A DNA stretch of 64,000 nucleotides, from NCBI GenBank assembly GCA_947627195.1, contig CANQVC010000001.1:28618-92617 (forward strand), read 5' to 3'. Source of the DNA: an uncultured Bacilli bacterium. GTDB taxonomy: Bacteria > Bacillota_I > Bacilli_A > ML615J-28 > CAG-698. Position 1 is the first letter of the stretch; every line of letters begins with the position of its first letter. Shown here piece after piece: positions 19,101 to 57,503 of this stretch. The translations under genes and the position numbers were made by a program. The notes beneath the pieces are model-generated. The model was not told where the DNA came from and did no database searches. It was given only the letters and a program-made list of their open reading frames with translations.

Positions 19101-19732
19101 TAGATAGTTTTGAATATAATTACATCGATAAAATATATGCGATTCATCTAAAACATGATATGTTATTTGTAATCAATAATGGCAATGAAATAACTGAAGA
19201 AAATAGTATTGATTTATATTTATCATGTATGAATGTGGAAATGTGGGTTATGATGTTGATGTATAGTGTTGATTATTCAACATTCCAAGAACAATTAGCT
19301 ACTGAATTTAGCCTATATGATGTTAAAAATCAAGAAATTACAACTTATATCAATGATCAATTATCATCTATTTATAGTGATATTGAAGATTTATCAACAT
19401 TTTCATCAACAAAATATTTAGAATTAGTTTCTAAAATAGAAAAATTAAATGGACATTATGAATTAATGGATTTTGAAGCTTATCATCAATATTTCATTTT
19501 AGGAATTTCTTATCAAATTGATCAATTATTAAATCAATATACATCAGTAACTAAAGATAATTATCAAGAAATTGATTATATCTTAAATGGTTATTATGAT
19601 AAAGAAAATGATGAAACAATTAATGGTATTGAATCATTAATTGCTCAATCAGGATTATATGAAGATTTATCAACATATATTTATCGTTATGATGAATATC
19701 TTGAATTCTTAAATTTATTCAATGAATTTTAA
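16163..19732 (+). CDS. Lipoprotein with a Listeria-Bacteroides repeat, BspA-type leucine-rich repeats and a ~550-aa helical C-terminal region
   Basis: Lipobox LISGC. VTLDFNGGTYDD...FSGWFYDQALTTRV is Flg_new-like. There are repeated IGxxAFxxCxxLxxIxIPxxVxxIGxxAF units. The start lies 2 nt after the upstream stop; an alternative ATG is at 16175. Confidence 0.8.
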   Translation: MEKNMKIKINKINLFILLLAFSCLFLISGCKTEEKIKNTPVVVDFEVRGIKEKYSQNEIVDVGQWKIILHLSDESTTTIDAFDPNLTIGEVNTDEIGEKTFSIIYSLSDGQTIEKSYTYEVIQIVVTLDFNGGTYDDKSSTELVATAMQVDVSQIIPTKLDEFGTPLKFSGWFYDQALTTRVNYVADGFISTSESITIYAGYDVDYTNIFEYEIRDDNTVEILGITNDGILNFMMEPELVIPETIELYPVTSIGDLFIFTRDPLTNEKDETFSWTVFINIDTIVFPENSKVTHIGKRAFEAMQISSVQFPNTLETIGEAAFRSTALAGDLVLPASLKTIGDYAFQYVSGALENISFASGSELKHIGRYAFASCSTVVSITLPNSLEEIMSNAFDGCTQIETITIPSNVHSIGLYAFKSMRSLKEINVDPNNATYSSLDGDLYSIDHKTIIRYCYGKQEETFVLPETVEIIEEGAFNIFNDITSLKTIVLNEGLKYIGSDAFSGCSMTFKLPSTLNEIATQAFNGWNGDSFEIDPANQTFTVYQGILYSKDMKTLYAVPRNLKDVTSLVLDPRVELIKSHAFCGNTTIRYITIPENSNLNKIDEYGLNIYSMSSLKGVYIFKQTPFEVVNGAFYEQHNFVANNVTVFVLGNNLNSYKEAWKNYQNNSETVENYNIQDNIVDCLSAKERLLDYLKETTKYISYETYNKGVTPYIKQDFASMKYTFQATLDYLISLYQEDDINNDVYNYFKLFEQQLYEIAADYFLDTYNNLHSFDNLDLKYLADIVTRYNECPKIIQDAINENYLKLKSLYDEINNIEATRQQIINELINFPCSATQFDAEKFNELNQRFIAANMDAISLPESVFYKYQLLDASSKIAELLAIETFSLDNKVRARTLIQGDFTNMGINSILESFLRTDESRKDLYRYQDYLTKAMQFSEYEANDIVAIQEEVASFDLSSECPIETMEELFRKIDSLTNIYELDSFEYNYIDKIYAIHLKHDMLFVINNGNEITEENSIDLYLSCMNVEMWVMMLMYSVDYSTFQEQLATEFSLYDVKNQEITTYINDQLSSIYSDIEDLSTFSSTKYLELVSKIEKLNGHYELMDFEAYHQYFILGISYQIDQLLNQYTSVTKDNYQEIDYILNGYYDKENDETINGIESLIAQSGLYEDLSTYIYRYDEYLEFLNLFNEF

Positions 19733-19752
19733 AAACGAAAGAAGGGGTGCAT

Positions 19753-22700
19753 ATGATAGAAAACGGAGATATACTCGTTAGTTTTTCTATTCAGACAATT
19801 GAAAAATGTGTCATTCAATGTCATCAACACATGGAAGTTAAAAGAATGCCATTGTCTGAATTTTTCCAAACTTACTTATCTCCTGAAAAGCTTGGTATCG
19901 AAGAAGATGGCTACAATTATGAATCTTTTTGTGCCTTTGCTTTAAAAGAAAAAGCAAGTACGATAACAACATATTATTCTAAACAAAATTTATGTTTATA
20001 TCGTTTTATGTTTTTCCAATCTGCTCATTCTAATATTATATTGTGCTCCTTAATTCGTATAACGAATACTGAAAATAAAGATTATTTCACCAATCGTGAT
20101 GTCTTAACAGGAGTTTATACTAGAAGTACTTTATTACAAAAATTAGAGAAAAGTTTTAAAGACGAAACTTGTCATAATTATTCTATCGTTTTACTTGATT
20201 TAAATGATTTTAAACATGTTAATGAAATATATGGTAGAGGTATCGGTGATAAAAGTTTAAGTGAAATTGCTTTAAGTTTACAAAATATTTTCCATAATCA
20301 AATGATATGTCGATATGGTGGCGATGAATTCTTTGTTTTACTAGAAAATTGTGATAATATACAAATTGAGGAATATATTCAAAAATTATTAGATTATGAA
20401 TATTATGTATCAGATCAAGATCGTAGTAAAATAAGAGTAACAATTAGAGCAAGTATTGTAAGTATTAATGATGAAATAAAAAGTATGGCAGAAGCACTTG
20501 ATGCTGTAACATCAACACTTGCGGAAGTAAAGAAAAAACGTCGCAATGCGGTAATGATATATCAAGGTAAAACTTATTTTAGTCGAGCTAAAACAGATCC
20601 ATTAAAACATTTATCAATGCATATTCATTCTAAACCAAAAAAGAAAAAAGAAAATATGCGTTTATTTACTGAAGAATTAAAAGCGCGAAGAATTCGTAAT
20701 TTTGCTATTTTATTAGTTTTAGTCTTATTATTATTATGTTCATCAATTTTAGTTGGTAGTATATTAACAAGACAATTAAATACTAAAAAAACAGAAGAAG
20801 CAACTAATATTATGAATGATATTTCTAGTCAAATATCTTCAAATATTTCTTCAAGTATTGAAAGTTGGAATAGTCAATTAATAATTGCTAGTAGAATGCT
20901 TTCTAATATTGAAGAAGGCGATAATTATGAAGAATATTTAAATCGAACATTACAAATAGTTGGTAACACAATTACCTTCGATGAAATAGCATTATTACTA
21001 GAAAGTGGTGACTTATATTTTAATTCAACTACTGAATATAATATAGCTTCCGAAGATCTTGCCAAAAATATCATTATTGAAAGAAAAGAATATATAGGTA
21101 GTCTATATATTAATTATTGGGGTGAAAGAATTGCTTTTGCTATTCCATATGATGGTATTGAATCAGAACTAAATGATCCAAATAGCAATCGTATTTATGG
21201 ATTAGTAGGTTTATTAACAATCGAAAATTTCTCTAAATTATTATATTCTGATGCTTTTTCTGAACAGGCTTATATGTCATTAGTCCAAAAAGATGGTAAT
21301 AGATTAATTACCTCATTAAATGTTAATGAAGGTACATATGCCCCATATAATGTCTATAATGCCTTTAAGAAATATGCTAATGAAAGTGAAATGGAAGTTT
21401 TAGAACAATCTTTAAATGAAGGTAAAACTAATATCATGAATTTACAAGTTGGTAAAACAAATTTCTTAACATATTGTACGAAAATAGATGATGATTCAAT
21501 TGATTGGCGAATTATTATAATGGTATCAACTGATATCGTCTTAAGTAGTGTTACAGGGGTATTTGAAAGATTAGGATATGGTGTATATATTGCATTATTT
21601 TTCTTTGTATGTATTGTATCTGTAATGGTTTATATTCATAATCAATTAAGAACGAAAAATCAAATGTTAACATATATGGATAAATTAACTAACGATATAA
21701 ATGATGAAAGATTTAAGATTGATGCCGAAACATTAATTAAAAGAAATGGTTCTACTAATTATTGTTTAGTTTATATGAATTTTTCTAATTATAAATATGC
21801 TCGAGAATTATTTGATACAGCAACAATTAATAAAATATTAAAAGAAGTATTTGAAGTAGTTCATAAATCACTTAATTTCAATGAATTAGAAACTAGATTA
21901 TCAGTTAATAATTATGTTATTTTAATGGAATATACAACTGAACAAGTAATTAAACAACGATTAATGGAAATTCAAAATCGTCTTAACGAAACAATTCATT
22001 TAGATGATTTAATGAGCATTATTGTTTCATTCGGTGTATATATTTTACCACCACAATATAAAAGTATCGTTGTTGCCATTGACCGTGCTAGTGAAGCCCA
22101 AAAACTTGCGGAAAACAGAATTGATTCTCATATGATTTCATTCTTTGATGAAAAGATGATGGCTCATGCAATGGAAGAAATGGAATTAGAAAAGAATCAA
22201 GATAAAGCCTTAAAATCTGAAGAATTTACTGTATATTATCAACTTAAAAAAGATATTCAACAAGATAAATGGGGTGGAGTAGAAGCATTAGTTCGATGGA
22301 AAGATCCTGTGAAAGGAATGGTATCTCCAGGTAAATTTATTCCTTTATTTGAAAAGAATGGTTTTGTAATTAAAGTTGATTTATATGTATTTAGTTGTGT
22401 ATGTCGAGATATGCGTCGCATGTTAGATGAAGGAATTACGCCAGTTCCTGTCAGTGTCAACTTATCAAGAAGACATTTAATGATTGATCATTTCTTAGAT
22501 GAATTTGTTACCATTATGAATCAATTTAATATTCCAAGAGAATTAATCGAATTTGAATTAACTGAAGGAATGATTTTTGAAAACGAATCTATTTTATATG
22601 ATGTCATTCATCAAATTCATGAAATCGGATGTCGTTGTTCTATTGATGATTTTGGTAGTGGGTATTCATCATTAAATATGTTGAAAGAATTTGATTTTGA

Positions 22701-22953
22701 TGTTATTAAATTAGATCGTAAATTCTTTTATGGAATTAATGGTTTCGATGAAAACTCAAAAACAATTGTTCGTTCATTAACGGAATTATCTCATCAATTA
22801 GGTAAAGAAGTAGTTGCGGAAGGAATAGAAGATGAACAACAAGTATCATTCTTAAGAAATATTTCTTGTAATTTAGTTCAAGGATATTATTATGCTAAAC
22901 CAGTTCCATATGATGAATATATTGTTAAATTAAATCAACATAAAGTTCAATAA
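19753..22953 (+). CDS. GGDEF (canonical), TM, dCache-like sensor, TM, degenerate GGDEF, EAL protein (predicted bifunctional c-di-GMP enzyme)
   Basis: ATG at 19753 lies 5 nt after AAGGGG; the ORF-track GTG at 19747 is less likely. GGDEF1 is [11 protein letters not shown]. Two TM segments flank ~260 aa that end [10 protein letters not shown] (Cache-like). The second GGDEF position is SVNNYVIL. The EAL set is complete: [41 protein letters not shown]. Confidence 0.85.
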
Positions 22954-22997: not shown

Positions 22998-23002
22998 GTA
23001 AG

Positions 23003-23136
23003 TACCATAAAGAGAAGGTTAGAGACAAGCTCAATGATCCTTCAGCAACCATTCCTAAAAAAAGGAAACGGTGCTAAAACTTGTATGATGGGATTTATAA
23101 AAATTAAAGTCCCGTTTAATTACGGGATTTTTTATA
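23003..23136 (+). ncRNA. SAM-I (S-box) riboswitch with intrinsic terminator
   Basis: AGAGAAGG..AGAGAC..GCTCAATGATCC..CAGCAACC...GGTGCTAAAAC matches the S-box core (GCAACC, GGUGCUAA). Terminator gtcccgt-ttaatt-acgggat plus tttttt at 23109-23135. It lies directly upstream of metK. Confidence 0.85.
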
Positions 23137-23174
23137 TTCCTCATCTAATTAATAAATCATATTTGGAGGAAATT

Positions 23175-24323
23175 ATGAACGAAAAAAAATTTTTTACATC
23201 AGAATCAGTAACCGAAGGACATCCTGATAAAGTATGTGATTTAATTGCTGATAGCATCTTAGATGCTTTCTTAGAAGGAGATAAAAATGCTCATGTTGCT
23301 TGTGAAGTTGTCGCAACAACTGGCTTAGTTATGGTTATGGGAGAAGTAACTGCTGACACATATGTTGATATTCAAGGAGTTGTCAGAAGAGTTGTCGATA
23401 AAATTGGATACAATCGTGGTAAAATTGGATTTGATGCCGAAAATTTAGCCGTAGTTGTGACTTTAGATGAACAGTCAACAGATATTGCCATGGGAGTTGG
23501 AAACGATACAGGCGCAGGAGATCAAGGAATGATGTTTGGCTTTGCCACAAACGAAACTAAAGAATATATGCCTGCTCCAATTATGCTTAGCCATAAATTA
23601 ACTAAAAGATTAGCCGATTGTCGTAAGTTTGATTTAGATGATATTTTAAGACCTGATGGTAAAGCCCAAGTAACTGTTGAATATGAAAATGGTAAAGTAA
23701 AAAGAATTGATAATATTGTTGTATCAACACAACATAGTAATAAAATATCAATTGAAACTTTAAGACAATATGTAATGAATAATGTAATTAAAAAGGTAAT
23801 TCCTAGTGAATTATTAGATGAAAATACTAAATATTATATCAATCCTACAGGAAGATTTGTCATTGGTGGACCAAAAGGTGATACAGGATTAACAGGAAGA
23901 AAAATAATTGTTGATACATATGGTGGATATGCTCATCATGGTGGTGGAGCATTTAGTGGTAAAGATCCATCAAAAGTTGATAGAAGTGCTGCTTATATGG
24001 CAAGGTATGTTGCTAAAAATTTAGTAGCAGCAGGTTATTGTGATAAATTAGAAGTAGGATTAAGTTATGCCATTGGGGTTAGTGAACCAACATCAATTAT
24101 GATTGATGATTTTGGTACAAGTAAAATAGGTAATGATGAAATTATTAAAATAATTCGTCAAGTTTTTCCATTAACGCCAAAAGGTATAATTGATTATTTT
24201 GATTTAAGAAGACCAATATATGCCATGACTACTAATTATGGACATTTTGGTAAAGATTATCTTCCATGGGAAAAATTAGATAAAGTCGATGAATTAAAAA
24301 AATTATTAGATAGTATCAAATAA
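23175..24323 (+). CDS. metK: S-adenosylmethionine synthetase
   Basis: RBS GGAGGA, ATG at 23175. The protein begins [34 protein letters not shown] and [19 protein letters not shown] are present. The ORF-track start at 23034 overlaps the riboswitch. Confidence 0.97.
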
Positions 24324-28373: not shown

Positions 28374-28379
28374 TTTATT

Positions 28380-28555
28380 GCCTGGAGAGTTCGCGTTTGT
28401 ACACATATGCGAACCGAACAATATTACATAGGGAGTTGAGGCGTTTCTGGCGTGAATGCTCATATTTATATGAGAATCCCGAAGCTACGCAAAAAGAGAT
28501 TTCCACCTTAGCGTGAACGAAGGTTCACATCAGTATTAACGGCTTTCTGGGTTTT
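28380..28555 (+). ncRNA. Structured small RNA, candidate 6S RNA (ssrS-like)
   Basis: An island of roughly 45% G+C in AT-rich DNA with its own promoter. The 5' CCUGGAGAG (28381-28389) pairs with the 3' CUUUCUGGG (28543-28551). A central hairpin CUCAUA-UUUA-UAUGAG sits at 28459-28474, exactly mid-molecule. Length is ~175 nt. ACCGAAC lies at RNA position ~33-39. Confidence 0.5.
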
Positions 28556-28587
28556 AATTTATTATAATAATTATCATTATTGTCATT

Positions 28588-45645: not shown

Positions 45646-47885
45646 TGAAAATAGCTCTTGTTGGTAACCAAAATAGTGGTAAAACAAGTTTGTTTAATTT
45701 ATTAACAGGAACAAATCAAAAAGTTGGTAATTGGCCAGGAGTAACAATAGAAAGAAAAATTGGTACAATAAAAAATACTAATCATGAAGTTGTTGATTTA
45801 CCTGGAATATATTCATTAAGTCCATATACAACTGAAGAAGAAGTTTCAAGAAAATTTGTTTTAGAAGATAAACCAGATTTAATAATTAATATAATTGATG
45901 CAACTTGTATTGAAAGAAGTCTTTATTTAACAACCCAATTATTAGAATTAGATTGTCCAGTTATTATTGCCTTAAATATGTGTGACATGTTAGAAAAAAA
46001 AGGAATAGATATTGATACATCTATTTTATCTGATAATTTAAAAACAACTATTATTAAAATATCAGCCTTAAAAAGATCAGGAATAGATACACTAATTCAA
46101 ATAATAAATAATAGAACTTATTTACCTAATATTCATAATGAAATATATCCCAATGATATTGAAAAATGTTTAAATAAAATCATTTTAAATTTAAATTGTG
46201 ATAATAAAAGATTTATTGCAGTGAAAATGTTAGAAGATGATCCATCATTTAAAACTAATGATGAATATATATTAAATGAAAGAAAACAAATAGAACAAAA
46301 ATACAAATATGATATTGAACAAATTATTGCTAATGAAAGATATAATTATATCATTGATGTTAAACAAAAATCAGTAAAAGTTAAATCAAAAGGAGAAAGT
46401 ATTACTGATAAATTAGATAAAATATTTTTAAATAAATGGTTAGCTATTCCTATTTTTATTTGTATTATGGCTTTAGTTTATTTTTTAGCTGTAAGTCCAT
46501 ATGTTGGTGGAGCACTTTCTGATATAATTGATTCATTGTTTCAAAAATTATCTTCATCATTAGAAACATTACTAACAAATATTGGTGCTTCATATTGGAT
46601 AGTAAGTCTTATATGTAATGGTATATTAGCAGGAATAAGTGCTGTTTTAAGTTTTGTGCCTCAACTTATCATTTTGTTTTTATGTATTTCTTTATTAGAA
46701 ACATCAGGATATATGAGTAGAATAGCTTTTTTCTTAGATAAAGTTTTTCGTAAATTTGGTTTATCAGGAAAAAGTTTAATTCCTTTTATTGTTGGATCGG
46801 GATGTAGTGTTCCTGGAATAATGAGTACGAGAACTGTGGAAGATGAAACTGAAAGAAGAATGACAATAATGTTAACACCATTCATTCCATGTAGTGCTAA
46901 ATTACCAATAATCATTCTTTTTGCCACAAACTTTTTTACTAAAGCTGTTCCATGGATTACAATTTCAGTATATTTTTTATCAATTGTAATTATTTTATTA
47001 AGTGCAATTGTTATGAAAAAATTCTTTTTTAAATCATCATCTTCCGTTTTTATATCAGAACTTCCTGAATATAAATTACCAAGTCCTAGATATGTATTAA
47101 GAGATGTCTTTGATAAATCAGTTGCATTTATTAAAAGAGCAGGTACGATTATTTTACTTTGTTCAGTAATTGTTTGGTTATTATTATCATTTAGTTGGAA
47201 AATGGAATATACTGATAGTCCATGGCAAGTAATAGATGATATTTCTATTGAATCATTAGCTGAAGAAGTTGGATATGATTCATTTAATGTTACTGATAAT
47301 AATGTTCAAGCTAAATATGAAAATAATTTATATCTACGTTTTAAAGATGGTGAATGGTCAGAATGGTATATTTATCCTCTTACTTTAGAAAAATATTTTA
47401 ATGGTAATCAAGATCAAAGAAAAGAAATTGTTGTGAAAATTGATGACAAAAAAATTGAAGCTAAATATTCTTTAGGAATTGATAACAGTATATTAGCCTC
47501 TATTGGTAAAGCTTTTTCTTGGATTTTTTATCCAATTTTAGGGGAAAGGAATTGGGGCGCAACAGTTTCTGCTGTACAAGGTTTAGTTGCAAAAGAACAA
47601 GTAGTTTCTTCAATGTCTGTTATTGCAGGATTAGCTGATAACGTCAGTGATTCAGATGCCATTTTTAGTTCAAAAATATTTAGTAATATGACGCCATTAT
47701 CTAGTTATGCCTTTATGGTATTTAATTTATTTAGTGCTCCTTGCTTTGGGGCAATAGGGGCAATGTATAAAGAACTAGGCAGTAAAAAGAAATTATTAAT
47801 TGCCATATCTTTTCAAACAGGACTAGCATGGATTCTCGGAAGTCTTATTTTTGGCATTGGTTCTTTAATATTAAAGGTGATATAA
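45645..47885 (+). CDS. feoB: Ferrous iron transporter FeoB
   Basis: The N-terminal G-domain reads IALVGNQNSGKTSLFN. Polytopic C-terminus. The start overlaps the feoA stop (TAATG). Confidence 0.93.
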   Translation: MKIALVGNQNSGKTSLFNLLTGTNQKVGNWPGVTIERKIGTIKNTNHEVVDLPGIYSLSPYTTEEEVSRKFVLEDKPDLIINIIDATCIERSLYLTTQLLELDCPVIIALNMCDMLEKKGIDIDTSILSDNLKTTIIKISALKRSGIDTLIQIINNRTYLPNIHNEIYPNDIEKCLNKIILNLNCDNKRFIAVKMLEDDPSFKTNDEYILNERKQIEQKYKYDIEQIIANERYNYIIDVKQKSVKVKSKGESITDKLDKIFLNKWLAIPIFICIMALVYFLAVSPYVGGALSDIIDSLFQKLSSSLETLLTNIGASYWIVSLICNGILAGISAVLSFVPQLIILFLCISLLETSGYMSRIAFFLDKVFRKFGLSGKSLIPFIVGSGCSVPGIMSTRTVEDETERRMTIMLTPFIPCSAKLPIIILFATNFFTKAVPWITISVYFLSIVIILLSAIVMKKFFFKSSSSVFISELPEYKLPSPRYVLRDVFDKSVAFIKRAGTIILLCSVIVWLLLSFSWKMEYTDSPWQVIDDISIESLAEEVGYDSFNVTDNNVQAKYENNLYLRFKDGEWSEWYIYPLTLEKYFNGNQDQRKEIVVKIDDKKIEAKYSLGIDNSILASIGKAFSWIFYPILGERNWGATVSAVQGLVAKEQVVSSMSVIAGLADNVSDSDAIFSSKIFSNMTPLSSYAFMVFNLFSAPCFGAIGAMYKELGSKKKLLIAISFQTGLAWILGSLIFGIGSLILKVI

Positions 47886-48112
47886 TGAATTTTGTCGATA
47901 TAATTTTATTAATTATTATTATAATAGTTTTATCATTAATTTTCTATTTTGGTATTATTAAAAATAATTCTTCACCTTGTAAGAATTGTCATAATAAAAA
48001 TTGTCATAAAGATATTAAACAAAATGATATAAATTGTTGTAGTAAATGTAATAAATCAGATAATAATAATATTAATAATATTAATAATATTAATAATATT
48101 AATAATAAATAA
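47885..48112 (+). CDS. FeoB-associated Cys-rich membrane peptide (75 aa)
   Basis: The ATG overlaps the feoB stop. It has one TM followed by CKNCHNKNC...CCSKC. The ORF-track start at 47828 lies inside feoB. Confidence 0.7.
   Translation: MNFVDIILLIIIIIVLSLIFYFGIIKNNSSPCKNCHNKNCHKDIKQNDINCCSKCNKSDNNNINNINNINNINNK
48065..48100 (+). repeat. (aataatatt)x4 microsatellite encoding (NNI)4 at the peptide C-terminus
   Basis: Read directly from the sequence. Confidence 0.9.
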
Positions 48113-48790: not shown

Positions 48791-49457
48791 TGTTCTTTTA
48801 TTTGACGCTGATGATACTCTTTTAGATTTTACGCAATCTGAAAAAATAGCAGTACAAGAAGTTATGAAACATTATGGAATTAATCCAACTTTAGAAAATT
48901 GTCAATTATATCATGAAATTAATATTAATTATTGGAAAATGTTTGAAAATAATTTAATTGATAAACCTAGTTTATTAGTTAAAAGATTTGCTGAATTTTT
49001 TGATAAATTAGGTAAAAAAGAAAATCCCGAAGAAATTAATAAATTATATTTTTCAATCTTACGTGAACAATCTATTCTTTTACCTAATGCTTTAGAACTT
49101 GTGAAAAGAATTAGTAAACAATATCCATTATATATCGTTACAAATGGAACAGCAATTGTTCAAGAAAGAAGAATGGAATTATCACCAATAAAACAATATA
49201 TTACCAAAATATATATATCTGAAAAAATAGGTTATCAAAAACCTAAAAAAGAATTCTTTGATTATGTTTTTAATGATTTAAAAATAACAAATCCTCAAAG
49301 AGTAATATTATTAGGCGATAGTTTAACATCTGATATTCAAGGTGGAGTTAATGCGGGAATTGATACATGTTGGTTCAATCCTCGTCATAAAGTAGCGACG
49401 ATTAACTCTACATATGAAATAGATAATTTACTAGATTTTATCAACATAATAAAATAA
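48777..49457 (+). CDS. HAD-superfamily hydrolase (YjjG-like nucleotidase subfamily)
   Basis: MKKYDVLLFDADDTLLDF carries the DxDxT motif. LYIVTNG and GDSLTSDIQGG are present. ATG at 48777 rather than the ORF-track 48750. Confidence 0.8.
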   Translation: MKKYDVLLFDADDTLLDFTQSEKIAVQEVMKHYGINPTLENCQLYHEININYWKMFENNLIDKPSLLVKRFAEFFDKLGKKENPEEINKLYFSILREQSILLPNALELVKRISKQYPLYIVTNGTAIVQERRMELSPIKQYITKIYISEKIGYQKPKKEFFDYVFNDLKITNPQRVILLGDSLTSDIQGGVNAGIDTCWFNPRHKVATINSTYEIDNLLDFINIIK

Positions 49458-49463
49458 AAAATG

Positions 49464-49495
49464 AAAGTCAATAGAAATGTTGACTTTTTTATTTT
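49464..49495 (+). terminator. Rho-independent terminator
   Basis: aaagtcaa-tagaaatg-ttgacttt followed by a T-run. Confidence 0.75.
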
Positions 49496-49531
49496 GCTGT
49501 CATGCTTTTTATTTTTTCGACATTACTCTTG

Positions 49532-49540
49532 TGATATACT
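49532..49540 (+). promoter_or_regulatory. Possible extended -10 promoter (TGaTATACT) of the sipW operon
   Basis: TG-n-TATACT with a poor -35. It lies ~125 nt upstream of the sipW start. Confidence 0.35.
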
Positions 49541-49664
49541 ACATGTAATAAATAAAATAATAAAAAATATTAAATATAATTGTAGGAAATAATCAATTAA
49601 TAATAATTTATAAATATTTAATTTATATATAATATATATAATCAAAGAGGTGCATAAAAACAAT

Positions 49665-50366
49665 ATGAAAAACATAAAATTATTTAGTTTCCTAAATAAA
49701 GTCTTTGCAGTAATTTTATATAGTTTTATTATCTTAGCTATTTTATTTTTATATGTTGTTATTAAATCAAAGAAAAATAATGATGTTGTAAGTATTATGA
49801 ATCATCAGATAAGAATAGTAACATCTGAATCAATGGAAAAAGGGAGCAAAGAAACAAATCAATATAAAATTAAATCTCTTCCTTTAAAAAGTATGATCAT
49901 AATTGAACAAGTAGATAATAACCATGAATATGAATGGTATCAATCATTAAAAGTAGGGGATGTATTAACATTTAAATATGTTTATATTAAACAAGAAACA
50001 ATTACCCATCGTATTATAAATATTCAAGAAGTTGATAATGGTTTTATCATTACATTACAAGGAGATAATCAAGATATTGAAAGTAATACATCTTCTCAAA
50101 CAATTGATACAAGAGATATTAATAGTCCTAATTACATAATTGGTAAAGTAGTTTATAAAAATGTTTTATTAGGAAAAATAATATATATTTTAAAACAACC
50201 AATTGGTATTGGATGTTTAATAATTCTACCTTCATTTATCATTATTATTTTAGAAATAATTAAAATAATTAATATTATAAATGAAAAGAAAAAGAAAGAA
50301 ACTGAAGAAGAAATTAACTTGTTAAAGAAGAGAATAGAGACTTTACAGAAAGGAGGAGAACAATGA
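49665..50366 (+). CDS. sipW: Signal peptidase I, SipW (ER/archaeal) type
   Basis: N-terminal TM. Catalytic-Ser motif VTSESMEK (compare SGSMEP). ITHRII (compare THRIV) and LQGDNQ are present. A C-terminal TM is present as in SipW. The start is either ATG 49665 or GTG 49650. Confidence 0.8.
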   Translation: MKNIKLFSFLNKVFAVILYSFIILAILFLYVVIKSKKNNDVVSIMNHQIRIVTSESMEKGSKETNQYKIKSLPLKSMIIIEQVDNNHEYEWYQSLKVGDVLTFKYVYIKQETITHRIINIQEVDNGFIITLQGDNQDIESNTSSQTIDTRDINSPNYIIGKVVYKNVLLGKIIYILKQPIGIGCLIILPSFIIIILEIIKIINIINEKKKKETEEEINLLKKRIETLQKGGEQ

Positions 50367-50983
50367 ATAAAAAAAGAGTCATCATAATATCATGTCTTAC
50401 CATTCTAGCTTGTTTAATGATAATTTGTGGAAGTACATTTGCCCTATTTACTAAAAATGTCACCACCACCCAACATTTACAAGCGGGACATCTCGACCTA
50501 ACATTACAACGTGAAAAATTAGTAACTAATAAATTACAAGAAAATGGCACAATGAAAGAAGAAACAAATAATCAATTAATTGATTTTACAAAAAGTACAA
50601 ATGAAAATCTATTTGGTATTAAAGAAATAGACAAAGTTGTACCTGGAAGTAGCTATGAAGCAACATTAATATTAAAAAATCTTGGTGATGTAGCCATTGA
50701 TTATTACATTGAAATTGTTATAAAAAATGGTGAAGAAACCGAATTAATTAAACAATTACAATTAACATTCATCGATATAAAAACTAATACTACTAAATCA
50801 AATTTATTATCTAATGGGTTACAAATGGGAAGTGAAACAGAAAGTATTGGTCAAGTATTAAAAAATGAAAGTACAAAATTTCAAGTTAAATTAATGTTTT
50901 TAAATCAAGAAAATGTTAATAATGATGCTTTTGATCAAGAAGTCGAATTTGATTTAATCGTTCATGCAACACAAAGTATTTAA
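50363..50983 (+). CDS. TasA/camelysin-like secreted protein with a SipW-type signal peptide
   Basis: CGSTFALFTKNVTTTQHLQAGHLDLTL matches the TasA-family signature (GTFAxFxD...AGTLDL). VPGSSYEATLILKN is present. The C-terminal strand is FDLIVHATQ. The start overlaps the sipW stop by 4 nt. Confidence 0.75.
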   Translation: MNKKRVIIISCLTILACLMIICGSTFALFTKNVTTTQHLQAGHLDLTLQREKLVTNKLQENGTMKEETNNQLIDFTKSTNENLFGIKEIDKVVPGSSYEATLILKNLGDVAIDYYIEIVIKNGEETELIKQLQLTFIDIKTNTTKSNLLSNGLQMGSETESIGQVLKNESTKFQVKLMFLNQENVNNDAFDQEVEFDLIVHATQSI

Positions 50984-50996
50984 AAAGGAGAAGAGA

Positions 50997-53900
50997 ATGA
51001 AAAATACTAAAAAAATATTAACAGGAGCAATGTTAATCATTTTATTATGTTTAAGTATCATAGTAGGTTCAACATTTGCTTTATTTACAAGTGAAAGTAA
51101 AAACAACATCGCAATTACTTCAGGTAAAGTTGATGTTGTTAGTAATCTTTCTAATCTAAAAACATATACAAATAATGAATTACAAAGTGATGGTACTTTT
51201 GCTTTAGGAGGAAGTGCTAAAATAATTGATGGAAGTTTAGAACTTAATCATATAGCTCCAATGGATAAAGCTGAATTTGATATTGAATTACAAAATAATA
51301 GTACAATATCAATTCGTTATCAATTACAATTGATAGCTAATGATGAATTATCTAAACAATTATTTAATTCATTAAATATCAAAGCATCAATTAAAAATAA
51401 TGATTTAGAATTAATTAAAAATGGTTTAACAATCGTTTCTAAATGGTCAGATACTAAATTAAAAGAAACTAAATTAGATTCAATTCATTTAAGTATTGAA
51501 TTACCAATTGAAGTAACAAATGAATTAGAAGAACAATCTTGTTCATTAACAATCGTTATTTATGCTGTTCAAGCTAATGCTCATGTTGAAGAACCAGTAA
51601 AACAAGAAGATAATAATGAAGTATATTTATATAATGCAAGTGATTTAAAAGAATTTAGAGATTCAATTAATATTGACGGTACATCATATAAAGGAAAAAC
51701 AGTTTATTTAATGAATGACATTAATTTAAATAATGAAGAATGGGAACCAATTGGTATCAATGGTATTAATGAAAATCATTTTGATGGAACCTTTGATGGT
51801 AAATCATTTACAATTTCTAATTTAAATGTAACAAGAACAAATGAACTTTATGGTGGATTATTTGGTTCAACTCAAAATGGTAAATTCAAAAACATTAATT
51901 TTATAGGTGCTGAAATTACTTCTAAATATTATGCAGGAGTATTAGGTGGTAATTTATATACATCTAGTATTGATAATGTTCATGTGGAAAAAGCAACAAT
52001 TCATACATCACACTGGTTAGGAGGAATTGTTGGAAGTATATATGGTAATATAACAAATTCATCAGTAAAAGATATCATAGGTATATGTACACCAGATAAA
52101 GCAGATGGTAGAAGTTACGATAATGGTGATAAAGTCGGTGGAATTGTTGGACAATTACAAGATAGTGGTCAATATCATATCGATAACTGTGTTGTTGAAA
52201 ACGTTGAGTTGACAGCATATCGTGATTTAGGTGGTTTAGCAGGTTGTGGAACTGGATCAGCAAAATTTTACCAAAACAATATTCTTAAAAATGTCACATT
52301 AACAATTGATCGTACAAATTATTATGGTGATAAAGATTATAATGTTAATTCTATCGTAGGAAGAAGTGATAATCCTAATCATGACACATTTAAAAATAAT
52401 GAAGAAGATGTAAATATTAAATATGTAAATTGTCGCTTCATGAAAACATCAGATGGTAATTATGTAGTAACAACTCCTAAATCATTTGTTGAATTTGCTA
52501 CTCAAGTTAATACAGGTAAAGATTTTGTCAAAGAAACAGTTGTTTTATTAAGTGATATAGATCTAACAGGAATTGATTGGACACCAATTGGTTATAATAA
52601 TAAACATTTCCATGGAACCTTTGATGGTATGAATCATATTATTAGTAATTTAAATATAAACAAAGAAACAGGAAGTATTGGTTTATTTGGTAGTGTCTAT
52701 AGTGGTGGAGATGGACCAAGAGTAACAATTAAAAACTTTACAGTGGAAAATGTAACTGTTAAAGGTGGAAAAAATAAAACAGATTATGTAGGTAGTGTTG
52801 TAGGTATTGCAACCCCATTAACAATTGAAAATGTCAATTTAAAAGGTTTAGTTAAAATTGATTCCCAAAATGGCTGGGCAGGAGGACTTGTTGGATATTG
52901 TCAAACAACAACATTCAATAATTGTCATATTGATGTTACAAATGAATCATATGTTAAAACAATATCAGCAACTAATACAGGTGGTATAACAAGTTTTGGT
53001 GATTATAACGTTTCATTTAATCATATCACAACTAATTTAAATGTTATAGGTGTAAGTAATGTTGGTGGTATTTTAGGTGCTGAAGGTGGAGATAATCCAA
53101 ATACTAAATTTACAGATTGTCATGTAAATAGTAATATTACAGGTGATAGTGGTTGGATTGGCGGCATTACTGGTAGAGTAATGAAAAATACAACCCTTGA
53201 AAATGTGACTTTTAATGGAAAATTATCTAATACAAAATTAAGTTTATTAACAAAGAGTTATTCAGGACTATTTGGTAATGTTTATAATGGTACACCAACT
53301 ATTTTATCATCAAATGCAAATACAAGTTATGATGGTAATATGAAAATATTAACAGAATATAATGAAAGTGGAAAAGCAACAACAACATATGAAATTTATA
53401 CACCTAAAGGATTAGTTGATTTAGGTGAAGCAATTAATAAAGGATATATTGTTAAAGGCGAAGGAAGATCAATCATGATTTTCTTAAAAGAAGATCTTGA
53501 TATGACCGAAATAAAAGAATTTAGTCCAATTAATGGTCAATGGATTAGTTTTAATGGTGAATATCATACAATATCAAATATCAATTTGGGTAAAGATTCA
53601 ACAGGTAAAAGTGGTTTATTTGGTTATGCAGGAGCGTTAGAATTACAAAATCTAACTTTAGAAAATGTGACAGCAAAAGGAAGTCAAGTAGGAACATTTG
53701 CTGCTCATACATTAGAAATAGGTAGTGGATTTATTAAAAATGTTACATTAAAAGGAAATGTAACATTAGATTATGAAAAATCAAATGAAGAATATGGCTC
53801 TGTTGGTGTATTTGTTGGTGTATATAGTCCAAATGATGGTGTATATAATAATCTAATAATTGATAAAGATTGTAAAGTAACAATTAATTTAAATGGCATA

Positions 53901-54731
53901 ATTACTAAATTAGTTAATAAAACAGATTATTATTTATTAGGTATGGGAACTACAGAAGAAAAACCATTAAATTATGTTATAACAAATGAAGTTAAAGATA
54001 ATACTAATATAACTATTTTAAATGAAGTATATGTAAATGAAGGAACTTCATTAGATGAAATTATTTTTACTGATGGTGTAACATATTATTTTTCTGAAGG
54101 AACATTTAGTCCAACATCTAATGAACAATTAAACATTCGTAGTAATAATATTACTTTAATTGGTCAAGGAACATCTAAAACAATAATTGATACTAAAGAA
54201 TTCTCATGTGCAGACCAAGCAGGAGTATTATTTGGTGGTAATAATGTAACAATAAAAAATATGACATTTAAAACAACATCTCAAAATAATAATGTATCAG
54301 CAATTAAGTTTTCCGCAATCGACCACGCTGAAGAAATAGTTCAAGAAGGATATTTAGAAAATGTTAATGTTATTGGTAGTTTAGGACATGGCATTAATTT
54401 ACATGGTGTAAAAAATTTCACATTAAAAAATATTGAAATAAGTGGATATCATAAATGTGGAATATCCCTAGCCAAAGCAGAAAATGTCCATTTAACATCA
54501 ATTAAAACATTAGAAACAACCCAAGGTTGGGGTGATATTGGCATGATGTATAAAGATGATGAAGGTGTATCTTACAATGCTCCATGTAGCGTAATAATTG
54601 ATGGAACAAATTCATTTGGCAAAAATGCTGCATATTCTGAAAGAAAAGATACTGCAACAGGAGGATTAGATACATTAAATGGTAAAACTGGTACTAAAGG
54701 ATTATTATATTATACATGGGATTTAAATTAG
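50997..54731 (+). CDS. 1244-aa fusion protein: SipW-type signal and TasA-like N-module, three GLUG-type modules, C-terminal right-handed beta-helix-like domain
   Basis: RBS AAGGAG, ATG at 50997 (the ORF-track start 50964 is unlikely). VGSTFALFTSESKNNIAITSGKVDV...LTIVIYAVQAN is the TasA-like module. Three repeats follow of ...W(E/T)PIG....F.GTFDG....ISNLN(V/I).....GLFG. The C-terminus has NITLIGQG...VTIKNMTF...NLHGVKNFTLKNIEISG. Confidence 0.8.
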   Translation: MKNTKKILTGAMLIILLCLSIIVGSTFALFTSESKNNIAITSGKVDVVSNLSNLKTYTNNELQSDGTFALGGSAKIIDGSLELNHIAPMDKAEFDIELQNNSTISIRYQLQLIANDELSKQLFNSLNIKASIKNNDLELIKNGLTIVSKWSDTKLKETKLDSIHLSIELPIEVTNELEEQSCSLTIVIYAVQANAHVEEPVKQEDNNEVYLYNASDLKEFRDSINIDGTSYKGKTVYLMNDINLNNEEWEPIGINGINENHFDGTFDGKSFTISNLNVTRTNELYGGLFGSTQNGKFKNINFIGAEITSKYYAGVLGGNLYTSSIDNVHVEKATIHTSHWLGGIVGSIYGNITNSSVKDIIGICTPDKADGRSYDNGDKVGGIVGQLQDSGQYHIDNCVVENVELTAYRDLGGLAGCGTGSAKFYQNNILKNVTLTIDRTNYYGDKDYNVNSIVGRSDNPNHDTFKNNEEDVNIKYVNCRFMKTSDGNYVVTTPKSFVEFATQVNTGKDFVKETVVLLSDIDLTGIDWTPIGYNNKHFHGTFDGMNHIISNLNINKETGSIGLFGSVYSGGDGPRVTIKNFTVENVTVKGGKNKTDYVGSVVGIATPLTIENVNLKGLVKIDSQNGWAGGLVGYCQTTTFNNCHIDVTNESYVKTISATNTGGITSFGDYNVSFNHITTNLNVIGVSNVGGILGAEGGDNPNTKFTDCHVNSNITGDSGWIGGITGRVMKNTTLENVTFNGKLSNTKLSLLTKSYSGLFGNVYNGTPTILSSNANTSYDGNMKILTEYNESGKATTTYEIYTPKGLVDLGEAINKGYIVKGEGRSIMIFLKEDLDMTEIKEFSPINGQWISFNGEYHTISNINLGKDSTGKSGLFGYAGALELQNLTLENVTAKGSQVGTFAAHTLEIGSGFIKNVTLKGNVTLDYEKSNEEYGSVGVFVGVYSPNDGVYNNLIIDKDCKVTINLNGIITKLVNKTDYYLLGMGTTEEKPLNYVITNEVKDNTNITILNEVYVNEGTSLDEIIFTDGVTYYFSEGTFSPTSNEQLNIRSNNITLIGQGTSKTIIDTKEFSCADQAGVLFGGNNVTIKNMTFKTTSQNNNVSAIKFSAIDHAEEIVQEGYLENVNVIGSLGHGINLHGVKNFTLKNIEISGYHKCGISLAKAENVHLTSIKTLETTQGWGDIGMMYKDDEGVSYNAPCSVIIDGTNSFGKNAAYSERKDTATGGLDTLNGKTGTKGLLYYTWDLN

Positions 54732-54752
54732 AACAAATATAGTGAAGATAAA

Positions 54753-55247
54753 ATGAAAAAAGCATTACATATATGTTTATTTATTTCTATTTTTATCATC
54801 TTTTTATGTCAAGGAATTATTATTTATAATATAGTAACAAATAAAAACAATTATATTGATTTAAGTAATGTTGATACTTTATCATCAAATGTTATCTTAA
54901 ATAATAAAGCAAAAAATAATTTAAAAGTTGATATAAATGGTATTAATCCAGGAGATAACAAAGAATATATTATTTATATTAATACAAAAAATAAAACAAA
55001 TAACATTAACTTTAATATATTAAAACAAGAAGATAATATTATATATAATTTTATAACAATTACCATTAAAACAAATCAAGAAACATTTAAAATTCCCGGA
55101 AATGAAATAAACAAAAAATATTCATTATCTTTTAATCAACAAGAAAAAACTCCCATTACCATTTGCTTTTCTTTATCAAAAGATGCGGGAAATGAAATTA
55201 GTTTATCCCAAGCAACTATTTTAATGGAAGTAAACATAAATAATTAA
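54753..55247 (+). CDS. Small N-terminally anchored or secreted beta-rich protein (164 aa), possibly a distant TasA-like module
   Basis: N-terminal hydrophobic segment. INPGDNKEYIIYI resembles the VPGSxYxxxLxL strand of the neighbouring TasA-like proteins. It lacks the GxTFAxF motif. Confidence 0.55.
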   Translation: MKKALHICLFISIFIIFLCQGIIIYNIVTNKNNYIDLSNVDTLSSNVILNNKAKNNLKVDINGINPGDNKEYIIYINTKNKTNNINFNILKQEDNIIYNFITITIKTNQETFKIPGNEINKKYSLSFNQQEKTPITICFSLSKDAGNEISLSQATILMEVNINN

Positions 55248-55261
55248 ATGAGGAGGAATAA

Positions 55262-55894
55262 ATGAATAGTCTCATCATTATTATCATGATAATTGTAATT
55301 ATAATGACTATATTTTCCCTTATTATTGTTATTCGTGATTTAATCTTAGATAATAAAGAAAGAAAAAAAATAATTATTGAAGTTAAAAAAGATCAACAAA
55401 TAATTGAAGAAAATAAACAAAACATAAAATTAGATAATTTAACAACAGAAAAAACTATTAATGAAAATAATATAAAAACATTTCTAGCTTTACCTAAATT
55501 AACTCACTTAGAAAAATATATGTTACTAAATGAAGAAAAGAAATCATGGTATGATGAAATAATTAATTATGCTAAAGAAAAAGAAAATGTGAAACATCGT
55601 TTGACAGAAAATTATGAAGATGTCAAATTATATAGCAAAAGAGTCATTAGAATGGTTATCAAAAGAGAAGAAATAATATGTGAATTTATTTTAGGTAATA
55701 ATCGCTTTAATGATTATATGAAACAAAAAAATTTGAATGTGAAAATATTACCAACACAACTAAAAATTGATTCAATTGAAGCAAAAGATGCTGCTAAAGA
55801 AAGTATCGATTTAACAATCCATTCTATAATGGAAGAAAGAAATTTAAAAAAAGAATTAAAGAAAAAAGGCAAAATACATGAAGAAAAGAACTAA
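55262..55894 (+). CDS. Single-pass membrane protein with a K/E-rich predicted cytoplasmic domain (210 aa)
   Basis: RBS GAGGAGGA. The N-terminal TM is followed by a positive cluster (RDLILDNKERKK). No motif was recognised. Confidence 0.6.
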   Translation: MNSLIIIIMIIVIIMTIFSLIIVIRDLILDNKERKKIIIEVKKDQQIIEENKQNIKLDNLTTEKTINENNIKTFLALPKLTHLEKYMLLNEEKKSWYDEIINYAKEKENVKHRLTENYEDVKLYSKRVIRMVIKREEIICEFILGNNRFNDYMKQKNLNVKILPTQLKIDSIEAKDAAKESIDLTIHSIMEERNLKKELKKKGKIHEEKN

Positions 55895-56492
55895 AATAAT
55901 ATTTTTGTGTCTAATAATTTTAATGTTATCTTCAATTATTTTAGTAGGAATAACATATTCTGTTTATTTACAAAATAAAAAAATTATTAATCATTTACAA
56001 GCAGGAGAATTAAATATATCATTACAAAGAATTAAATTAGAATATAAATCATTAAATGAAAAAGGATATTTAGAAGATAATATAGATGAAACAATAGTTG
56101 ATTTCACAAAAGGAAATAAAGAAAATATATTTGGCAGTAAATTTATCATAGTACCAGGCTCTAAATATTCATCAACAATGTTATTATCAAGTTTAAATAG
56201 TACAGTGGCATTTAATTATTACATCGAAATAAAAACTAAAGAAGATTTACCTTCATTAGCAAGTCAAATAATAATAACATATATAGAAGATAACAAAGAA
56301 ATTAAATTTAATATGAATGAAAATAATAATTTTGGTAGTATTGACAATCCTTTAGGAATAGTAGAAGTAGGTAATAATAAAACATTCATTATGCAAATTG
56401 AATTTATTGATCAAGATAACAATAATTTATCAATGAAAAATATTTTTGATTTTGATATAATTGTTCATGCAATTCAAAAAATAAATAATTAA
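55878..56492 (+). CDS. TasA-like protein, paralog of 50363-50983, with a divergent signal/cleavage motif
   Basis: It shares HLQAGxLxxxLQRxKL, DFTKxxxENxFG, VPGSxY, YYIEI and FDxIVHAxQ with the first paralog. VGITYSVYL replaces GSTFALFT. It overlaps the upstream ORF by 17 nt. Confidence 0.7.
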   Translation: MKKRTKIIFLCLIILMLSSIILVGITYSVYLQNKKIINHLQAGELNISLQRIKLEYKSLNEKGYLEDNIDETIVDFTKGNKENIFGSKFIIVPGSKYSSTMLLSSLNSTVAFNYYIEIKTKEDLPSLASQIIITYIEDNKEIKFNMNENNNFGSIDNPLGIVEVGNNKTFIMQIEFIDQDNNNLSMKNIFDFDIIVHAIQKINN

Positions 56493-56497
56493 TATTT

Positions 56498-56540
56498 TAA
56501 ACGGTTTGATTTATCAAAGCTTGATTTATCAAGCCGTTTA
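56498..56540 (+). terminator. Operon-end hairpin (taaacgg...ccgttta) enclosing a direct repeat ttgatttatcaa x2
   Basis: Read directly from the sequence. The following T-tract is weak (aatttatt). Confidence 0.45.
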
Positions 56541-56660
56541 ATTTATTCATATTAAGATTTAATTAAAATCTCATTTTTTAAATTTCATTTACCTATTTAC
56601 TTTTTTATCAATTTGTGATAATATATTAGTTATACAATAGACAGATAGAAGGTAAGAAAT

Positions 56661-57503
56661 ATGTCAATTAAATTAGTTGTTGATACAACATGTGATATTC
56701 TTCCTAATGAAGCAACGGAAGATTTCATAGAAGTAATGCCTTTAAAAATATTTATCGATGGTGAAGAATATTTAGATGGTGTTACTATAACAAGAGAAGA
56801 ATTTTTTGAAAAACTACCAAAAGCTAAAAATTTACCTAAAACAGTACAAATAAATCCAGTTCAATTCGAAGAAAAATTTAAGGAAATACTAGATCAAGGT
56901 GATGAAGTTTTAGGTATTTTTTTATCTAGTAAATTATCAGGTACATACAATTCAGCACGTATTGCGAAAGATGAAATTAATAGTGAACATATTGAAATTA
57001 TAGATTCTACATTCACTATTATGCCATTTAGATTACTTGTTGAAGAAGCTGTCCATCTAATCAAACAAGGATTACCATTAAAAGAAATAAAACAAAAATT
57101 AGAAATTGCTAAAACTAAAATTGTAATGTTAGCATTTGTTAGTGATTTAAATTATTTAAGAAGAGGTGGAAGATTATCAACAGCTGCCTTTACAATTGCT
57201 AATGTTTTACATATTAAACCGATTCTTACTATGAAAGATGGAGAAATCATTGGTTGTGCTAAAGCTATTGGTATAAATAAAGCTGCTAAAACAATTTGTA
57301 AAATGTTAAATGAAGATTATGATGTTGATTATGATCGTGATTCAGTAATTGCTGATGCAGCAGGGAAAGCTGAAAAAGAAATATTAAGCAATTGCTTAAC
57401 ACAATTAACTAAACTAAGACCAAATATTCATGAAGAAATAGGAGGTACAACAGGTACATATACAGGACCTGGTTGTGCAGCTATTGCATTTTTTATAAAA
57501 TAA
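56661..57503 (+). CDS. DegV-family fatty-acid-binding protein
   Basis: IKLVVDTTCDI...INPVQF...LSSKLSGTYNSA is a typical DegV pattern. Length is 280 aa. Confidence 0.85.
   Translation: MSIKLVVDTTCDILPNEATEDFIEVMPLKIFIDGEEYLDGVTITREEFFEKLPKAKNLPKTVQINPVQFEEKFKEILDQGDEVLGIFLSSKLSGTYNSARIAKDEINSEHIEIIDSTFTIMPFRLLVEEAVHLIKQGLPLKEIKQKLEIAKTKIVMLAFVSDLNYLRRGGRLSTAAFTIANVLHIKPILTMKDGEIIGCAKAIGINKAAKTICKMLNEDYDVDYDRDSVIADAAGKAEKEILSNCLTQLTKLRPNIHEEIGGTTGTYTGPGCAAIAFFIK

Follow-up and report, generated by a model that had tools for sequence, protein, structure and literature searches.

The window analysed here, a 64,000-nucleotide stretch of contig CANQVC010000001.1 (GenBank assembly GCA_947627195.1) from an uncultured Bacilli bacterium, contains at 50997..54731 (+ strand) a single unbroken open reading frame (ORF) for a protein of 1,244 amino acids (aa). 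In this protein, referred to below as the fusion protein, an N-terminal domain of the TasA/camelysin family is joined to a long passenger that includes GLUG-type beta-helix modules, and such a TasA-fused passenger was found to be the rule in a very large unnamed family. By a modest degree we favour the reading, drawn from sequence comparison, that the fusion protein is a passenger-bearing subunit of a TasA-type fibre, which it would join by donor-strand complementation.

The fusion protein and its domains

The start codon was assigned to the ATG at 50997, and not to the in-frame ATG at 50964, because an AAGGAG Shine-Dalgarno sequence lies about 7 nucleotides 5' of the former and the homologues share the M-K-x-x-K-K start of the fusion protein; a start at 50964 would overlap the preceding gene. 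Searched as a whole, the protein gave a single sub-threshold Pfam match, to Peptidase_M26_N, and further domains became visible after it had been cut into pieces. No NCBIfam match was obtained for the fusion protein, for either of the two small TasA-like proteins encoded beside it (206 and 204 aa) or for a neighbouring 164-aa protein.

The N-terminal module was characterised at the level of its family by using an alignment, A1, of 45 N-modules of homologues. Peptidase_M73 (PF12389) was matched by 42 of these modules, with a best E value of 9.4e-11. When the A1 profile was searched against 177,635 sequences of the PDB, the two best matches were both Bacillus subtilis TasA (8AUR, E 8.7e-5; 5OF1, E 1.6e-4), reached through the blocks L-x-L-x-x-I-x-PGDK-x-F-x-I-x-N-x-S and YQ...V-x-A-x-Q-x-N. 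Comparison of A1 with the family of the neighbouring 206-aa protein by hhalign gave 99.7% (E 2.6e-26, 192 columns), and the N-terminal region of the fusion protein itself is 27% identical to that protein (50363..50983; E 2e-11), so that the likeness to the stand-alone TasA-like neighbours claimed in a preliminary description of this DNA was borne out. Because of this family-level evidence we regard the TasA homology of the module as settled. The core, a TasA/camelysin-type beta-sandwich, was assigned from model and profile to aa 47–195, with a linker to aa 205 (51135..51611, +). An AlphaFold2 (AF2) model of aa 1–205 that was built with A1 had a mean predicted local distance difference test score (pLDDT) of 89.3, with core blocks above 90; it consists of a signal helix (aa 3–30) and a beta-sandwich (aa 47–192) with about 11 strands and one short helix. 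By sequence profile, then, the N-module is a member of the TasA family, with which the modelled fold class is consistent, albeit not specifically confirmatory.

The three motifs that had been quoted for this region were found in their places: IIVGSTFALFTSESKNN at aa 21–37, TSGKVDVV, the SG-x-(L/V)D(L/V) strand, at aa 41–48, and LTIVIYAVQAN at aa 184–194. The first belongs to a SipW-type signal peptide (aa 1–28; 50997..51080, +). Its signature G-[AGS]-T-[FY]-A-L-F-T, exemplified by G-S-T-F-A-L-F-T and located at about residues 22–26, is near-invariant in the N-modules of 91 homologues. TasA is cut by SipW before A28 (PMC10151520, PMC9674648). Cleavage of the fusion protein is predicted after Ala28 (FA28) because the sequence aligns without gaps with TasA GGGTWA/AFND, where the slash marks the cut.

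The mature protein would thus begin with the segment aa 29–46, LFTSESKNNIAITSGKVD (51081..51134, +). In TasA, the donor strand consists of residues 28–38 and fills out the sheet of the following subunit (PMC9674648, PMC10151520), and conservation among TasA-like proteins is highest for residues of the protomer interface (PMC10151520). In our own reading of the sequences, mature TasA AFNDIKSKDATFASGTLDLSA aligns gap-free to aa 29–49 of the fusion protein, LFTSESKNNIAITSGKVDVVS, with the aromatic second residue and the S-G-x-[LV]-D-[LV] strand in register. Among the 91 N-modules, aa 29–46 are the best-conserved mature stretch (3.44 bits per position vs 1.9–2.5 in the core strands), and aa 31–40 are disordered in the monomer model (pLDDT <50). 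Strong conservation combined with disorder in the monomer fits a donor strand or a protomer interface, and from the conservation and the alignment we infer that aa 29–46 are the equivalent of the TasA donor strand.

The passenger (aa 206–1244) was modelled together with the N-domain in a second AF2 run (aa 45–1244; alignment A2, 42 sequences; mean pLDDT 78.8). The N-domain and modules 1 and 2 scored above 85, and confidence was low at aa ~968–1045 and beyond aa 1172. The modules delimited in this model are unequal, covering roughly aa 208–487 (module 1; 51618..52457), aa 488–793 (module 2; 52458..53375) and aa 794–966 (module 3, shorter and degenerate; 53376..53894, all +). Each opens with a strand and an 11-residue helix (model residues 170–181, 450–461 and 759–770), which form a head, and continues with stacked short strands, the beta-helix rungs. 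Module 1 is mostly above pLDDT 90, as is module 2 up to about aa 740, and module 3 ranges from ~60 to 95. The head motifs W-PIG, F-GTFDG, ISNLN and GLFG lie at aa 249, 262, 273 and 287 in module 1 and at aa 528, 538, 549 and 562 in module 2. Module 3, which matches modules 1 and 2 by BLAST, retains a degenerate head (FNGEY at 852, ISNIN at 859, GLFG at 873). GG[ILV]xG rungs number three in module 1, five in module 2 and none in module 3. Pfam Glug (PF07581) matched module 1 above its cut-off (26.2 vs 20.5 bits) and module 2 below it (E 0.05); module 3 had no Pfam match. The last ~70 positions of Peptidase_M26_N (PF05342) matched the module head, again below the cut-off (E 1.8e-4). Of the three GLUG repeats of ~270 aa described at the outset, the third is degenerate, and the common length does not hold.

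The best Foldseek match of the passenger was 3N6Z, Bacteroides ovatus BACOVA_03286 (E 1.3e-7, 18% identity, TM score 0.60 on the target), a 'putative IgA1 protease' made solely of GLUG beta-helix. The IgA1 protease of Streptococcus pneumoniae was also found (7JGJ and 7UVL; for 7JGJ 17% identity and a root-mean-square deviation (rmsd) of 5.5 Å over 287 columns), and the remaining matches, to beta-helical glycosidases, lyases and phage tailspikes, were loose. With a profile match above the cut-off in module 1 and a match of fold, the modules are GLUG beta-helices. Identity with an M26 IgA1 protease was considered and rejected: HExxH occurs nowhere in the protein, Peptidase_M26_C was not matched, and a catalytic domain is lacking.

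The C-terminal 226 residues (aa 1019–1244; with the stop codon 54051..54731, +) form a separate domain, which is 56% identical over 227 aa to the C-terminus (aa ~700–929) of P0008, a 929-aa protein that has an N-module of the fusion type and a different middle; by this comparison the domain behaves as an exchangeable unit. It matched Beta_helix (E 1.1e-3; 19.1 vs a cut-off of 25.9 bits) and Pectinesterase (E 4e-3) below threshold, and no pectate-lyase family in Pfam; its pLDDT is 50–70 for aa ~1050–1170 and below 50 past aa 1172. The model thus portrays, at low confidence, what is possibly a right-handed beta-helix, only weakly beta-helix-like, and the signals for the pectate-lyase-like beta-helix proposed earlier are weak. 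A word-indexed homologue search with the C-terminal 284 aa (53877..54728) returned no match and missed even the protein itself and P0008. We take this silence as a limit of the word index, since BLASTP shows the 56% identity to P0008; when a query is short and of biased composition, even evident relatives can escape such a search.

To judge from its sequence, the passenger is most probably a rigid binding head for a glycan, a host surface or another cell. A binding head is likelier than an enzyme because the passenger carries no catalytic signature; an enzymatic role of the C-terminal domain is possible.

Extent of the family, its operon and neighbouring genes

A database search with the full-length fusion protein yielded 782 homologues, a recurrence that far exceeds chance, and 91 of the 120 best carry the N-module. 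With the A1 profile, a full HMMER search of 1.84 billion cluster representatives retrieved 6,563 proteins at E≤1e-3; tightening the threshold to 1e-10 and 1e-30 left 2,553 and then 1,642 (clusters of 50% identity). Among the best 150 the module is N-terminal in all, and 143 proteins are at least 330 aa long, the longest having 2,020 aa. A pattern scan of one genome per species identified 247 stretches coding for N-module relatives, from which 78 loci in 59 assemblies were kept; of the 94 complete N-module ORFs there, 92 encode 374–2,049 aa. Other fusions of a TasA N-module, for which a search had been suggested, thus proved plentiful, and fusion, which had appeared as an exception among TasA proteins, is the usual state of this family (about 1,640 clusters).

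All 78 loci come from gut-derived metagenome-assembled genomes (MAGs), the hosts being rabbit, deer, goat, sheep, horse, chicken and human. Their taxonomic labels read Bacilli, Clostridia, Eubacteriales, Christensenellaceae, Oscillospiraceae or Candidatus Scatosoma, a few bins being implausibly labelled, and 'uncultured Bacilli' MAGs from the rabbit gut stand closest. In an unbiased sample of family members (n=68), the passenger domains recognised by Pfam were Beta_helix (8), Peptidase_M26_N (6), Glug (5), LRR_5 (1) and the Pectate_lyase_5 'adhesive domain' (1), and the alignment consensus places a GLUG-module head in the majority. LRR_5 (BspA type), DUF3737, Big_2 and Flg_new are further passenger domains of the family. 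Of 209 members with 400 aa or more, none has an LPXTG-like motif in its last 60 residues, and one has a C-terminal hydrophobic stretch; the fusion protein, too, lacks LPXTG. The only names seen in the sources were 'hypothetical protein' and JGI's 'predicted ribosomally synthesized peptide with SipW-like signal peptide', so that the family was not found to be a routinely annotated one with a known function.

The fusion gene is the third of six closely packed or overlapping ORFs on the same strand (49650..56492, +), in the order sipW, tasA-like 1, fusion gene, membrane-anchored TasA-like protein, transmembrane accessory protein and tasA-like 2. The first gene (49650..50366) encodes a putative SipW-like signal peptidase I of the endoplasmic reticulum (ER)/archaeal type (238 aa), recognised by sub-cut-off NCBIfam matches and by the motifs S-x-S-M (SESM) and T-H-R (THRI) and two transmembrane segments read in the sequence. 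The second (50363..50983) encodes the 206-aa stand-alone TasA-like protein 1, a candidate shaft subunit on the evidence of hhalign, synteny and a Peptidase_M73 match above the cut-off (23.7 vs 22.5 bits, profile positions 8–192 of 196). Downstream of the fusion gene, the 164-aa protein (54753..55247) has an N-terminal hydrophobic helix followed by a TasA-like domain (hhalign against A1: 97.9%, E 5.9e-13, 149 columns) with PG(D) and GNEaQ...A blocks; both the T-F-A-L-F-T motif and the donor-strand segment are missing, and from this composition it could be the anchor or terminator of a fibre. The fifth gene (55262..55894) is a conserved accessory gene for a 210-aa protein with one N-terminal transmembrane helix and a charged domain, which matched no family in NCBIfam or Pfam and is unrelated to TasA by hhalign. 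The last (55878..56492) encodes stand-alone TasA-like protein 2 (204 aa), which lacks a Pfam match of its own and is assigned by its 37% identity to the 206-aa protein (E 2.6e-31). A terminator-like hairpin (56519..56534) with a T-rich tail (together 56519..56544, +) closes the operon; in a consensus scan it was the only such site on the + strand within 49300..56800. The G+C content of the DNA is about 25% throughout, and in DNA of this composition a promoter scan was uninformative (81 sites vs 71 expected).

Synteny was assessed by searching the 78 loci by tblastn with the proteins of the operon. In about 46 of them sipW is followed by a small tasA and one to five tandem fusion genes, sipW lying 1.3–2.5 kb upstream of the fusion gene, and in most loci an orthologue of the small tasA directly precedes the fusion gene. 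In L001 and L002, the two closest relatives (N-module identity 49 and 47%), a compact cassette consists of 164/165-aa protein, sipW, tasA and fusion gene. Orthologues of the 164-aa protein lie directly upstream of sipW in L001, L002, L003, L016, L022 and L055, and those of the 210-aa protein between sipW and small tasA in about 16 loci. Up to six N-module genes occur per genome (loci L016, L019, L028, L037 and L061 of assembly CAVJPU01; multi-copy genomes are also represented by L052 and L013), with tandem arrays of up to five. Within the fetched loci most multi-copy genomes, including that with six genes, have one sipW, and two were found for the assembly of L013. That many passenger genes accompany a single sipW suggests that one processing and assembly system serves many passengers.

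Elsewhere in the window, an ORF of 1,189 aa (16163..19732, +) has BspA-type LRR_5 repeats (E 5e-46) and no TasA-like N-module by tblastn; in other genomes an LRR_5 passenger is fused to such a module (e.g. P0103). A 2,658-aa ORF (267..8243, +), for which Pfam gave nothing at E≤1e-5, possibly encodes a further giant surface protein. Two GGDEF-EAL proteins of cyclic di-GMP turnover (8331..10811 and 19747..22953, +) are possible regulators of surface or biofilm functions. Two RNAs scored above their Rfam gathering thresholds, a 6S RNA (28376..28557, +; 57.8 bits) and an S-adenosylmethionine (SAM) riboswitch (23002..23094, +; 57.1 bits) directly upstream of the ORF 23034..24323. A 94-aa ORF that overlaps the end of a FeoB-like gene (47828..48112, +), is possibly not a genuine gene; it has a transmembrane segment, an (NNI)n tail and the Cys-rich stretch CKNCHNKNCH...CCSKCNK.

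Proposed assembly and alternative explanations

In the mechanism that we propose, the fusion protein would be exported by the Sec pathway and cut after Ala28 by the SipW-like peptidase. Once cut, the protein would expose a conserved N-terminus, LFTSESKNNIAITSGKV, that would serve as donor strand in the way of TasA residues 28–38, and this strand would join the N-domain to a fibre of the small TasA-like subunits. The beta-helical passenger of about 1,000 residues would then project from the fibre, tethered solely through the C-terminal end of the TasA-like domain, and the 164-aa protein would accept a free donor strand and so fix or terminate the fibre at the cell, as proposed for the archaeal protein TafF. 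By analogy, the fusion subunit may be a tip initiator of the TapA/TafC type, may be scattered along the shaft or may form a polymer of its own class; TapA and TafC are models of initiators (PMC9674648, PMC10151520, PMC11821415). The idea that the TasA module is a handle for a large passenger, put forward in the preliminary description, is strengthened by the conserved operon, the conserved donor-strand equivalent, the lack of any other anchor and the membrane-anchored TasA-like protein of the same operon; incorporation into a fibre is the part that we infer.

Several observations weigh against this proposal. Taken alone, the N-terminal segment of the fusion protein reached only 19.3–19.7 bits against Peptidase_M73 (cut-off 22.5; E ~1e-3; profile positions 3–166 of 196). 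The best 50 PDB matches of the N-domain model in Foldseek, with the 30-residue signal helix included in the query, contained neither TasA, AbpA nor a donor-strand pilin; the matches were generic beta-sandwiches (SGBP-B, carbohydrate-binding modules, the R domain of diphtheria toxin) with TM scores of ≤0.35 on the query. The SipW-like gene lies below both NCBIfam cut-offs (NF046067 SipW, 44.7 bits vs 190, E 1.1e-11; TIGR02228, 42.1 vs 51.85 bits, E 7.5e-11). The conserved N-termini, moreover, differ by class: fusion proteins have VNIAVTSGKV and small TasA proteins VTNHLQAGxL (in the 206-aa protein LFT-x-x-x-VTNHLQAG-x-L). Because the donor-strand sequences differ in this way, the proposal has to assume that both classes can enter one and the same fibre; the difference could either encode an order of assembly or keep the classes apart.

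This class-specific strand also speaks for an alternative, which we hold to be unlikely, in which the fusion N-domains assemble solely among themselves or with stand-alone proteins that share their subtype, or hold the protein in the envelope in the manner of camelysin, to give a brush of passengers on a self-polymerising or cell-bound stalk. Further points in its favour are the several tandem fusion genes of some loci and two findings that also weigh against the preferred proposal: the many orphan fusion genes without sipW within 8 kb (e.g. that of P0008), distant from any sipW-tasA operon, and the stand-alone proteins of 180–260 aa that carry the N-module subtype of the fusion class and with which fusion proteins might pair instead. 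These stand-alone proteins, some of them on long contigs, were retrieved by a profile search of a word-indexed database, which is not a fair sample of length, since most of the proteins retrieved are shorter than 400 aa and many lie on contigs of 1–2 kb and are probably truncated. Against the stalk, the small tasA directly upstream of the fusion gene in most sipW loci argues for a joint function. Less probable still, in our estimation, is a released enzyme or toxin-like effector, whose TasA-like module would serve only SipW-dependent processing or folding and whose passenger, above all the C-terminal domain, would diffuse and degrade polysaccharides. Foldseek does list GH87 (E 1e-6), fucoidan lyase, polygalacturonase and tailspikes, weak Pfam signals of Beta_helix, Pectinesterase and GH49 occur in the C-terminal domain, and that domain is exchanged between proteins as a unit. 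These fold matches, however, do not exceed a TM score of 0.22, and their rmsd is very high, a result that any beta-helix would be expected to give; no catalytic family scored above threshold, and phmmer of the passenger against the PDB sequences gave no match. A folded and conserved domain of 170 residues with a conserved free N-terminal strand also exceeds the needs of a signal or pro-peptide. The last explanation, that a frameshift, an assembly chimera or a mis-called gene joined a small tasA to a surface-protein gene, arises only from the small size (about 200–260 aa) of the characterised TasA proteins; nothing was found in its favour. It has a negligible probability and is refuted by recurrence across independent assemblies: 91 of the 120 best homologues share the architecture, 92 of 94 ORFs from independent assemblies have 374–2,049 aa, some 1,640 clusters share the module, and the domain junction is well modelled.

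A further reading, possible if doubtful, is that the system is a chaperone-free Gram-positive counterpart of adhesin-tipped pili, in which a dedicated peptidase and a small TasA-like shaft subunit would provide the scaffold, the 164-aa type of membrane-anchored protein would end and anchor the fibre, and up to six interchangeable GLUG, BspA-LRR or beta-helix subunits per genome would be mounted on that fibre through a class-specific donor strand. If so, the TasA fibres of uncultured gut Bacillota would be a modular display platform, beyond a biofilm scaffold. Among models of how proteins scaffold Gram-positive biofilms, TasA-type fibres are a leading one. If the donor-strand handle of the preferred fibre-subunit proposal is real, the TasA domain would act in ~1,640 clusters as a handle at the N-terminus, by which a large passenger of beta-helical or leucine-rich type is held, and adhesins or enzymes would be displayed on fibres by a widespread, sortase-independent route in Gram-positive gut bacteria.

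Comparison with known systems

To our knowledge, the characterised bacterial TasA-type subunits are all small single-domain proteins of ~200–260 aa. The fusion protein is unlike them in that its TasA-like part ends near aa 195 of 1,244: TasA of B. subtilis is a single domain of 261 aa, and the fusion protein carries ~1,040 additional residues. The operon resembles tapA-sipW-tasA of B. subtilis (5OF1, 8AUR) in that a dedicated ER-type signal peptidase, here a putative one, is encoded together with PF12389 proteins, and both proteins have the signal G-x-T-[FW]-A followed by [AL]-F and the PGDK...N-x-S and YQ...A-x-Q-x-N blocks. It differs in that no TapA homologue was recognised in the operon, which holds instead an anchored TasA-like protein without a donor strand and a transmembrane accessory protein, and in that the N-module, in an alignment made by eye, has an additional hairpin of ~25 residues between the first strand and the PGDK strand.

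A parallel in gene content is sipW-bsaA-bsaB-bsaC of Clostridium perfringens, also a member of the Bacillota, which likewise combines SipW, two TasA-like proteins and one large secreted multi-domain protein (PMC11580942). BsaA polymerises by donor-strand exchange and is locked by an intermolecular isopeptide bond with an N-E-K triad; BsaC (70 kDa) has a von Willebrand A domain where the present protein has GLUG modules, and no TasA-like N-domain was reported in BsaC (PMC11580942).

The proposed logic is also that of the archaeal tat-fimbriae (tafi), in which TafC, a pilin-like domain with a laminin-G domain, forms the tip, TafA the shaft and TafF the anchor, the tip placement being modelled (PMC11821415). 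Common to both would be a donor-strand domain with a C-terminal passenger, a small shaft subunit, a membrane-anchored acceptor and a signal peptidase in the locus. The tafi differ by twin-arginine (Tat) export, by their occurrence in haloarchaea and by distant sequences, and their arrangement rests on AlphaFold models; the passenger of TafC is a single domain of ~20 kDa vs a beta-helix of ~115 kDa here, and the membrane segment is C-terminal in TafF (PMC11821415) and N-terminal in the 164-aa protein.

As regards the passenger, modules 1 and 2 resemble the GLUG/Peptidase_M26_N regions of known structures (7JGJ, 7UVL, 3N6Z) in matching Glug and the C-terminal part of Peptidase_M26_N. Unlike an IgA1 protease, the fusion protein has no M26 catalytic domain, HExxH, LPXTG or G5, and its modules are borne on a TasA-like domain. 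With the tip adhesins FimH and PapG it would share the principle that a pilin-type domain links a functional head to a donor-strand-complemented fibre; these adhesins are unrelated in sequence, require a chaperone and an usher and have the head at the N-terminus. A further system close to the present one is AbpB, for which the role of a FimH-like adhesin has been suggested (PMC9245690).

Neither the superfamily surveys (PMC9245690, PMC12518558, bioRxiv 10.64898/2026.01.04.697558) nor the literature found by our searches describes a bacterial protein in which a TasA domain bears a large GLUG or beta-helix passenger. The fibre family and the passenger folds are known; their combination, with a conserved operon of its own, is undescribed and widespread. 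That a passenger on TasA is physically possible in principle follows from engineered TasA-MHETase and TasA-OPH fusions, which still form fibres (PMC8332661). Those fusions are artificial, and the gut family, if the handle proposed here is real, would be their natural counterpart and a natural precedent for 'living materials' made from engineered TasA fusions.

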